Source of the DNA: Escherichia coli
Lineage (GTDB): Bacteria > Pseudomonadota > Gammaproteobacteria > Enterobacterales > Enterobacteriaceae
Assembly (NCBI RefSeq): GCF_009931435.1
Contig: NZ_CP043414.1
Reading direction: 5' to 3' (one strand)
Length of the DNA stretch: 64,000 nucleotides
Positions within the stretch are counted from its first letter, which is position 1, and every line of letters starts with the position of its first letter. A program made the position numbers and the translations under genes. A model generated the notes under the pieces. The model was not told the DNA's origin, made no database searches, and worked only from the letters and a program-made list of their open reading frames with translations. Of the stretch, positions 37,833 to 38,321 are shown piece by piece.

Positions 37833-38321
37833 ATTAGTTAAAATATGGAATCCTGAAATAATCTCTGTTGATATGTGGAGCCATCTTCCAGGCTCCCACC
37901 TAAATCATGTTAGCAGTTCCATTTTTTTGATGATTTCCGCATGAGCATCATCGTTATCCCCAGCGACAAATTGAATACAAAACCAGTGCTACCGCCATTG
38001 CAATTCCTACCGTTGCGAATGCTTCAGGCCAGCTCATTGATTCACCTCCTGCGCGGTTCTGGTAGTGGTATCCAGAACAAGGCGTTCCCTAACCACGATA
38101 AAGTGCCGTCGCTCAACTCCACGTATTCCCCTTGCACCTATCCTGCCATATACTCACCGTGCTTTGAATAAATTAAAATCCAATCATCTTGAGCGGGCAT
38201 TCGCTCACTACAGCGTATCCAACCACCCGGAGTTACCGGAGAGTTGCCGCGTTCTTTAATGTGCAAGCGAGGCTCACCATCTTTTGGTTCAGGCCACTGG
38301 CGCTCCATGTTGATCTTCAAT

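Follow-up and report, generated by a model that had tools for sequence, protein, structure and literature searches.

A probable WPEAF-motif membrane microprotein gene of phages in an argW-linked prophage remnant of Escherichia coli

The microgene and the prophage remnant around it

The 64,000-nucleotide stretch of Escherichia coli DNA analysed here (contig NZ_CP043414.1, referred to as the window) contains, within a decayed prophage next to the tRNA gene argW, a short minus-strand frame that very probably encodes a membrane microprotein of phage early regions. According to the window sequence and its list of open reading frames (ORFs), AGGAGGTGAATCA-ATG opens a 27-codon frame at 38037..37954 (minus strand), the product of which is MSWPEAFATVGIAMAVALVLYSICRWG. 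This microgene (37954..38037) consists of 27 sense codons, including the ATG (38037-38035), followed by a TAA stop codon (37956-37954), and its product combines a WPEAF..VG motif, a GxAxAxA helix and a C-terminal arginine; the motif residues are W3, P4, E5, A6, F7, V10, G11, A13, A15, A17 and R25. The hydrophobic core takes up 19 of the 27 residues, and one transmembrane (TM) helix is predicted.

Read along the minus strand, the order is CCGCGC, AGGAGGTGA, ATCA (38041-38038) and then ATG AGC TGG CCT GAA, ending in TGG GGA TAA. The element AGGAGGTGA (38042..38050, minus strand) is contained in the final codons of the upstream gene, matches the complement of the anti-Shine-Dalgarno sequence over 9 nt and holds its GGAGG 7 nt from the ATG, and is by these features a near-perfect Shine-Dalgarno (SD) site at ideal spacing. 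The ATG is part of an ATGA start/stop overlap (38034..38037, minus strand), a predicted translational-coupling junction in which the TGA (38036-38034) is the ancestral stop codon of the upstream gene (...PQEVNQ*), while another TGA within AGGAGGTGA (38044-38042) is the stop of the frameshifted upstream frame in the window copy. A first-pass annotation had pointed to a strong SD site ahead of a 27-residue hydrophobic single-helix frame, and the sequence is exactly as it described. Since 93 ORFs of at least 20 residues overlap the surrounding 5 kb, an ORF alone is no evidence for a gene, and it is conservation that lifts the 27-codon frame above chance. On the plus strand, an ORF of 76 residues (37941-38171) lies opposite the microgene and the end of the upstream gene; its frame has a ratio of nonsynonymous to synonymous substitution rates (dN/dS) of 2.45, and it was discarded as a gene candidate.

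The frame had also been assigned to a prophage remnant, and the surrounding features, namely argW, a truncated intS, a DUF551 pseudogene, the ORF and the stub of a phage gene, bear this out. The order at this argW-linked site is mlaA, yfdC, tRNA-Arg and the remnant, followed by genes for a LysR-family regulator and a PACE-family efflux transporter. The tRNA-Arg gene argW (38972..39043, minus strand; 63.4 bits against the Rfam tRNA model) provides the attachment site bounding the remnant. The integrase gene is represented by its N-terminal part only (intS', 38325..38807, minus strand), which a deletion has joined to the remnant of the upstream phage gene (38034..38329, minus strand). The latter is N-terminally truncated, retains a C-terminal DUF551/EaA domain, and is called a pseudogene by the Prokaryotic Genome Annotation Pipeline (PGAP) in the near-identical strain RMDEC465; intact DUF551 homologues of this gene are present in phages. 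On the other side, a deletion fused the last codons of the microgene to DNDDAHAEIIKKMELLT*, the C-terminal stub (18 codons; 37905..37958, minus strand) of a 77-residue phage gene; in the P1-like phage vB_EcoM-813R1 that gene is intact and stands downstream of the microgene (locus L003, 2299-2532). The microgene and the 77-residue gene have also been fused in frame, independently, in the database protein P0194, so deletions recur at this junction.

Strain RMDEC465 is the closest genome (99.6% identity), and the 84 nt of the microgene are identical there. Compared with that strain, the DUF551 remnant of the window carries an extra CAG>TAG change at 38140-38138, about 100 nt upstream of the microgene, and an extra 1-nt deletion near 38053, just before the SD site (CCGCCGCAG>CCGCGCAG). 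An inference of selection at the window locus from the decayed upstream pseudogene set against the intact microgene was rejected as underpowered, with 3 differences in about 330 nt versus 0 in 84 nt. In the decayed argW prophage of the window the microgene survives as a relic: coding sequence and SD site are intact, and the DUF551 gene upstream is dead. Because the upstream gene carries both a nonsense mutation and a frameshift, coupling is lost in the window, and expression depends on read-through from intS', which is the only plausible source of transcription into the microgene and is itself preceded by a promoter-like site (38857-38830, minus strand) that is a consensus match only. The window peptide could be produced only through SD-driven initiation on such a read-through transcript.

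Selection on the frame and the cassette that carries it

A degenerate-pattern scan of IMG/VR, combined with the copies in retrieved loci, yielded 127 instances and 62 unique alleles of the microgene, nearly all of the alleles being exactly 27 codons long. Within codons 12-27, the part left unconstrained by the search pattern, the per-codon-position entropy was 0.30/0.18/0.65 (54 unique 84-nt alleles), with variation mostly at third positions. In the microgene frame the dN/dS ratio, calculated by the Nei-Gojobori method, was 0.18-0.22, whereas the two remaining sense frames gave 1.3 and 2.3. A low ratio (0.24) was also obtained for the antisense frame with the same wobble positions, an expected artefact and not independent proof of the strand; the start and stop of that antisense frame are not conserved, and the strand assignment follows from the conserved ATG, SD site, stop and length of the microgene. 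By this pattern of substitution the 27-codon frame is a genuine coding gene under purifying selection on the peptide sequence, which confirms the coding assignment proposed in the first-pass annotation.

A second scan, anchored on the last eight codons only, served as an unbiased check of the 5' half. An ATG lay exactly 84 nt before the stop, with no internal stop codon, in 149 of 159 instances (94%; 68 of the 76 unique alleles), and two further alleles start with GTG. The frame is thus conserved in related islands, the lack of which had been named beforehand as an argument against the gene. Of the four alleles in this set that are interrupted by a stop codon, three carry TGG>TAG at codon 3, and the same lesion is found in two Shiga-toxin (Stx) phages retrieved by blastn. 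In ACC-TGG alleles the mutated G falls inside a Dcm site (CCTGG>CCTAG), which is a classical hot spot of 5-methylcytosine deamination, while the AGC-TAG alleles are unexplained by Dcm. The codon-3 change occurs in at least four phage lineages (loci L002 at about 2213-2221, L004 at about 2218-2226, L156, L186 and L221).

The boundaries of the conserved unit are sharp. Among 78 unique segments anchored at the ATG, the mean pairwise identity per position was 0.80-1.00 across the ORF and fell to 0.35 from the first base past the stop codon; upstream it was 0.78 at the SD block (-12..-7) and about 0.45 or less further upstream. The conserved unit is therefore the ORF plus about 20 nt upstream holding the SD site, the SD block being the sole conserved upstream stretch. 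Among the C-termini of the upstream genes at least eight unrelated types can be distinguished, all ending in the TGA of ATGA, such as DUF551 (...PLPEPPQEVNQ*), 933W (...NDLKNIEQKVNQ*), ArgO145 (...GLISVEDILR*) and Av-05 (...MLKKKGMNQ*), and a GGAGG-type SD site is present in all of these classes. Downstream, 23 unrelated contexts are combined freely with the upstream types; many of them open with a stable GC-rich hairpin. The setting is generally a run of small same-strand phage genes, which in lambdoid phages is the ea/exo-xis accessory block; there the microgene often closes the run ahead of a hairpin or of a convergent module. Taken by its sequence pattern, the gene travels as a promoter-less SD+ORF cassette plugged into the 3' end of the preceding cistron. 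The conserved flank is so short, and the flanks are so unrelated between phages, that neither a promoter for the microgene itself nor a long structured 5' untranslated region (UTR) nor an antisense antitoxin gene could be accommodated. Such a cassette, which hides its SD site within the final codons of whatever gene precedes it and has its start in ATGA, shows how a promoter-less microgene can spread through phage mosaics.

In 41 of 126 viral instances, more than for any other downstream context, the cassette is followed by the hokW/sokW locus of 933W-type phages. From the end of the microgene in these Stx phages it is about 90 nt to sokW and about 150 nt to mokW (locus L005, 1501-1950), with no fixed linkage, this being 1 of the 23 contexts.

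These contexts bear on the suggestion of the first-pass annotation that the peptide is a type I toxin or a membrane modulator. A membrane-damaging toxin would oligomerise and depolarise or permeabilise the inner membrane in the manner of Hok, TisB, Ibs or a viroporin/holin-like factor, either as part of a type I toxin-antitoxin module or as a stand-alone phage factor for killing or lysis timing. The peptide resembles known type I toxins (Hok/Gef, Ldr, Ibs, TisB, ShoB and DinQ) in its size (below about 60 residues), hydrophobicity, single TM helix and prophage location; its small-residue faces are compatible with homo-oligomers, it stands directly upstream of hokW/sokW in its commonest context, and the independent codon-3 nonsense mutations in several prophage lineages might have been selected, were leaky expression harmful. 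The adjacency to hok/sok is, however, confined to 1 of the 23 contexts, and the codon-3 TAG of the ACC-TGG alleles may be put down to the Dcm hot spot. Moreover, 94% of the copies are intact, with up to seven per genome, and they persist in remnants that lack a cognate antitoxin.

The RNA level was no more favourable to a toxin. Within 6 kb of the ORF, Rfam detected tRNA-Arg only and no antitoxin or small RNA (sRNA), and the scan for promoters and terminators returned chance-level consensus sites, with no promoter-like site antisense to the ORF, which answers in the negative a check that had been proposed with the toxin idea. The RNA fold from -53 to +108 was no more stable than shuffled sequences (z = +1.1). 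No antisense antitoxin RNA conserved together with the gene was found, although an RNA wholly inside the ORF escapes this sequence test. Type I toxin mRNAs have their own promoter and a structure that occludes the SD site, whereas here the exposed strong SD site lies in the upstream coding end and the ATG overlaps its stop codon, a design opposite to that of a translationally locked mRNA. As well, neither the Hok/Gef Pfam model (PF01848) nor any other named toxin or holin family gave a significant match. With a conserved promoter, an antisense RNA and a structured mRNA all absent to the extent that sequence can tell, a type I toxin-antitoxin module is not supported, and a membrane-damaging toxin of either kind is rather unlikely. 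Of the earlier suggestion, membrane modulator stands as the most plausible class. For the window itself the result is modest, namely a relic copy with no sign of a toxin-antitoxin module.

The horizontal shuffling of the cassette is also what might be expected of a superinfection exclusion factor, in which case the peptide, soon after infection or induction, would enter the inner membrane and stop genome injection by other phages. The T4 protein Imm is known to block genome injection by other phages in this way. A small, predicted inner-membrane protein occurring in both temperate and lytic phages would fit such a role, and HK97 gp15, a YebO-like exclusion protein, offers a precedent for a small membrane-inserted phage protein that has spread horizontally (PMC3594210). 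HK97 gp15 is encoded by a moron, that is, an independent transcription unit with its own promoter and terminator inserted between phage genes, and is expressed from the prophage (PMC3594210). The WPEAF cassette is like a moron in being a horizontally spread accessory gene in unrelated contexts (lambdoid, P1-like and Vequintavirinae phages), but no independent transcription unit was found, as no conserved DNA upstream of the SD site could hold a promoter and the terminator-like hairpins seen in a number of downstream contexts all lie within the variable flank. A further difference from gp15 is location, the cassette lying in the early accessory region and not in the tail operon. In sequence, too, the two differ: with E values up to 10 allowed, neither Pfam nor NCBIfam gave a YebO-family match, and no relation to gp15 or to any PADLOC defence model was detected. 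Without its own promoter, expression from a repressed prophage, as for gp15, is unlikely. In addition, the motif is shared by phages of gamma- to alphaproteobacteria, whose DNA entry routes are presumably different, which favours a more universal target. An entry-blocking function is on these grounds improbable.

The WPEAF family and its occurrence

The motif of the window peptide extends well beyond E. coli. A scan of one genome per species revealed it in Nitratireductor (two contigs), Sphingobium, Izhakiella and an Escherichia species, each time within a short ORF; ATGA overlaps are present at the likely starts of the Nitratireductor and Izhakiella homologues, and the Nitratireductor neighbourhood, judged by reading translations, is prophage-like, with RusA-like and HNH-like ORFs. 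A family profile was built from 15 sequences, the window allele included, with a 40-residue allele heading the alignment. Searched against a 5.8-billion protein set, it retrieved 213 proteins, all short and without a Pfam domain, for which the best name was 'bacteriophage protein', while a search of 1.84 billion representatives gave 151 clusters at 50% identity with E up to 1e-3. Members of these clusters are 24-90 residues long, except for two upstream-gene read-through fusions of 143 and 206 residues, and they share the pattern M-x-WPEAF-xx-VG-x-A-x-A-x-A, a hydrophobic helix and a basic tail, reaching as far as alphaproteobacterial prophages. The family can be defined by M-x(1-4)-W-P-[EDQ]-A-F-x-x-V-G followed by x-A-x-A-x-A, a hydrophobic helix and a basic residue, usually within 24-60 residues; the window peptide fits this definition, and alleles closely related to it score up to about 67 bits against the profile. 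The genes of divergent members stand in rows of small genes without Pfam matches, all read in one direction and overlapping tightly, an arrangement typical of phage early regions.

Among 137 members less than 70% identical to one another, the motif positions were occupied by W in 100%, P in 99%, E in 82%, A in 99%, F in 96%, V in 95% and G in 100%, these family-wide frequencies being inflated because matches had to score on a 27-position profile built from the motif. In the same members, small residues make up 72-88% at W+10, +12 and +14, and lysine or arginine stands at W+22 in 48%. The charges are distributed unevenly around the helix, with a mean of 0.02 lysine or arginine residues before it and 1.24 after it, and 1.0 aspartate or glutamate in the N-terminal flank. 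The family has among the most sharply conserved motifs in so small a peptide, and its reach into alphaproteobacterial prophages implies a conserved membrane-level activity.

Length variation in the helix also keeps the reading frame. In-frame 6-nt repeat expansions (AM or AV units, e.g., IAMAMAMAMAVAL) occur inside the helix of several database proteins (P0001, P0038, P0046, P0049, P0063, P0075 and P0082), and there is one tandem duplication of the first 15 codons; the expanded or duplicated alleles are 29-42 residues long, with the frame always kept, and helix length seems to be tolerant or variable.

These data can be set against the idea that the peptide sequence is irrelevant, and that the ORF only keeps ribosomes on the 3' end of the operon, as an anti-polarity or mRNA-protecting device, or acts as a recombination or RNA element, with the window copy as a dead relic in one variant. 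The frequent position of the microgene as the last cistron before a hairpin would agree with this, as would the first 21 nt of the ORF (TGGCCTGAAGCATTC), which are conserved even at several third positions, and the loss of the upstream partner gene in the window. It is contradicted by amino-acid-level conservation with synonymous turnover, by the maintenance of the motif in far-diverged DNA (alphaproteobacteria and metagenomes), by the frame-keeping expansions within the helix and by the lack of any RNA structure signal. A role that does not involve the peptide is hence very improbable. The window copy may be inactive, which is compatible with a peptide-level function of the family.

Searches against known families gave no assignment. 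When 13 family members were compared with Pfam, NCBIfam, PHROGs and PADLOC by hmmscan, none matched at the curated cutoff of Pfam or NCBIfam; a search of the PDB returned no match to the family, and tblastn with an artificial family consensus found none either, probably owing to low-complexity masking. The best Pfam match, to TadF (E = 0.0022, 18.4 bits against a cutoff of 27.3), was rejected as insignificant and unrelated, and weak pilin matches likewise. The best PHROG match (E = 0.029) was to an unrelated model or one of unknown function and was rejected, as was the single match to a helix-packing type of model, the glycine-zipper region of DUF883_C, which at E = 0.056 and 13.5 bits (cutoff 27) fell short of significance.

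The gene is widespread in E. coli and its phages. By tblastn the peptide is encoded in 94 phage records, the carriers including 933W, VT2-Sakai, Min27, Stx2 II, ArgO145, several vB_Eco phages, the P1-like phage-plasmid 813R1 and the lytic Vequintavirinae phage Av-05, and blastn of the 84 nt counted 3292 copies, which are spread over 1707 of 5426 complete E. coli genomes (about 31%), with up to seven per genome and 164 on plasmids. The record of 'Actinobacillus phage vB_Apl-pPE4' (PP818812.1, 13106-13186) contains an E. coli-type allele with 88.9% amino-acid identity; such an allele is odd for a Pasteurellaceae host, and it may be that the module has a broad host range, or that the sequence was mis-assigned or is a contaminant.

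Common as the gene is, in complete E. coli genomes and in the reference Stx phages 933W and VT2-Sakai, functional annotation leaves it out almost entirely. In eight of the phage annotations inspected (75/02 Stx, 813R1, STEC1589, 933W, ArgO145, Av-05, 666R9 and Stx2 II) the ORF lies unannotated in a 'gap', its ATG overlapping the stop codon of the annotated upstream gene. The only phage coding sequence called at the site among the annotations inspected is one of 111 nt in 689R5 (36 residues; locus L130, 1199-1309), which is a frameshifted copy read in the wrong frame. PGAP makes no call for the microgene, and public protein entries are labelled 'hypothetical' or, wrongly, 'DUF551 domain-containing protein, partial' (e.g., P0004, P0011, P0020, P0021 and P0024). 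The layout, with the SD site inside the upstream gene and the start in ATGA, shows why gene finders miss such microgenes. A full-text literature search matched the peptide sequence in no paper. Small hydrophobic membrane peptides of phages and prophages are a well-known kind, but the WPEAF family, with its motif, breadth and cassette architecture, appears to be undescribed and unannotated.

A putative role in the membrane

The explanation that we favour, with a probability of roughly 0.6, is that the WPEAF peptide is a 27-residue, single-pass inner-membrane phage microprotein, translationally coupled to its upstream gene and acting by helix packing or association within the membrane, this mechanism being much the less secure part of the explanation. 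Ribosomes terminating on the upstream gene would reinitiate at the microgene ATG by coupling, aided by the microgene's own strong SD site. The acidic N-terminus, M-x-W-P-E-A-F, would then be translocated to the periplasmic face, giving an N-out/C-in topology by the positive-inside rule, while the helix would span the membrane and the basic C-terminal residue (R25 in the window peptide) would stay cytoplasmic. The invariant glycine and the alternating small residues, G11-x-A13-x-A15-x-A17, may provide smooth faces for tight helix-helix packing, so that during phage development the peptide might associate in the membrane either with further copies of itself or with a conserved inner-membrane protein of the host. 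Neither the upstream and downstream contexts nor the neighbourhoods of the divergent members contain a conserved neighbouring gene that would point to a phage-encoded partner.

A close parallel to this explanation is offered by AcrZ, MgtS, KdpF, CydX and YohP, small single-pass inner-membrane regulators of E. coli described in the literature of the Storz laboratory. The WPEAF peptide resembles this class in being shorter than 50 residues, in having one hydrophobic TM helix with a charge asymmetry that would orient it, the orientation being predicted from the family-wide charge bias, and in being missed by annotation pipelines. Members of the class act through helix-helix contacts with larger membrane proteins, and by analogy the same is proposed for the WPEAF peptide. 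There is no sequence similarity between them, KdpF reaching only 8 bits (E = 2.6), and the WPEAF family differs in being phage-borne, in its SD+ORF cassette coupled to unrelated genes and in the strictly conserved WPEAF motif, which is predicted to be extracytoplasmic. Small residues are also the basis of known helix-packing motifs, such as GxGxGxG of ATP-synthase c-rings and GxxxG or glycine zippers. In G11-x-A13-x-A15-x-A17, similarly, two faces of the helix would be lined with small residues, as they are in TM oligomers with tight packing; the resemblance is compositional only, and oligomerisation of the WPEAF peptide is putative.

Several observations speak against the favoured explanation. 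The low dN/dS of the wobble-sharing antisense frame and the inflation of the motif frequencies have been described above, and the helix-packing role of GxAxAxA is inferred from composition. About 6% of the copies are broken, with the codon-3 TGG>TAG change recurring among them, which suggests that the gene is dispensable, or perhaps counter-selected, in some lysogens. A copy that would link the gene to published ribosome profiling was looked for, but the K-12 prophages CPS-53, Rac, Qin, DLP12 and e14 contain none, nor does lambda. Most ribosome profiling has been done in K-12 and lambda, and the lack of the gene there is probably why such profiling never met it. The peptide is likewise absent from the supplements of a study of intergenic small genes in strain Sakai (PMC5597208) and of a study of the Enterobacteriaceae microproteome (PMC11188072).

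A more far-reaching form of the favoured explanation can be offered only tentatively. WPEAF microproteins of 24-35 residues may constitute a pan-proteobacterial host-takeover factor of phages, delivered as a promoter-less cassette on any upstream early gene, with the invariant, periplasm-facing WPEAF..VG segment docking on a universally conserved inner-membrane machine and altering it during infection. The translocon, or an energy-transducing or division component, is a conceivable docking machine, on the same tentative footing. If true, this would represent a new functional class of phage microprotein and provide a handle for target discovery, and the biology of Stx phages might be affected, given that 933W and Sakai Sp5 carry the gene.

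The remaining genes at the window locus form a divergent pair between the phage stub and torI, inside or beside the remnant (36386-37832). One encodes the LysR-family regulator (36948-37832, plus strand) and the other the PACE-family (AceI-like) multidrug/biocide efflux transporter (36386-36844, minus strand), both being cargo next to or in the remnant. Neither gene occurs in CPS-53. That K-12 prophage occupies the same argW site with an intS of its own, a quite different cargo and no WPEAF-motif ORF. CPS-53 encodes there the small 'toxic protein YodE' (48 residues; locus L143, 8498-8644), a different small-protein gene at the equivalent island.

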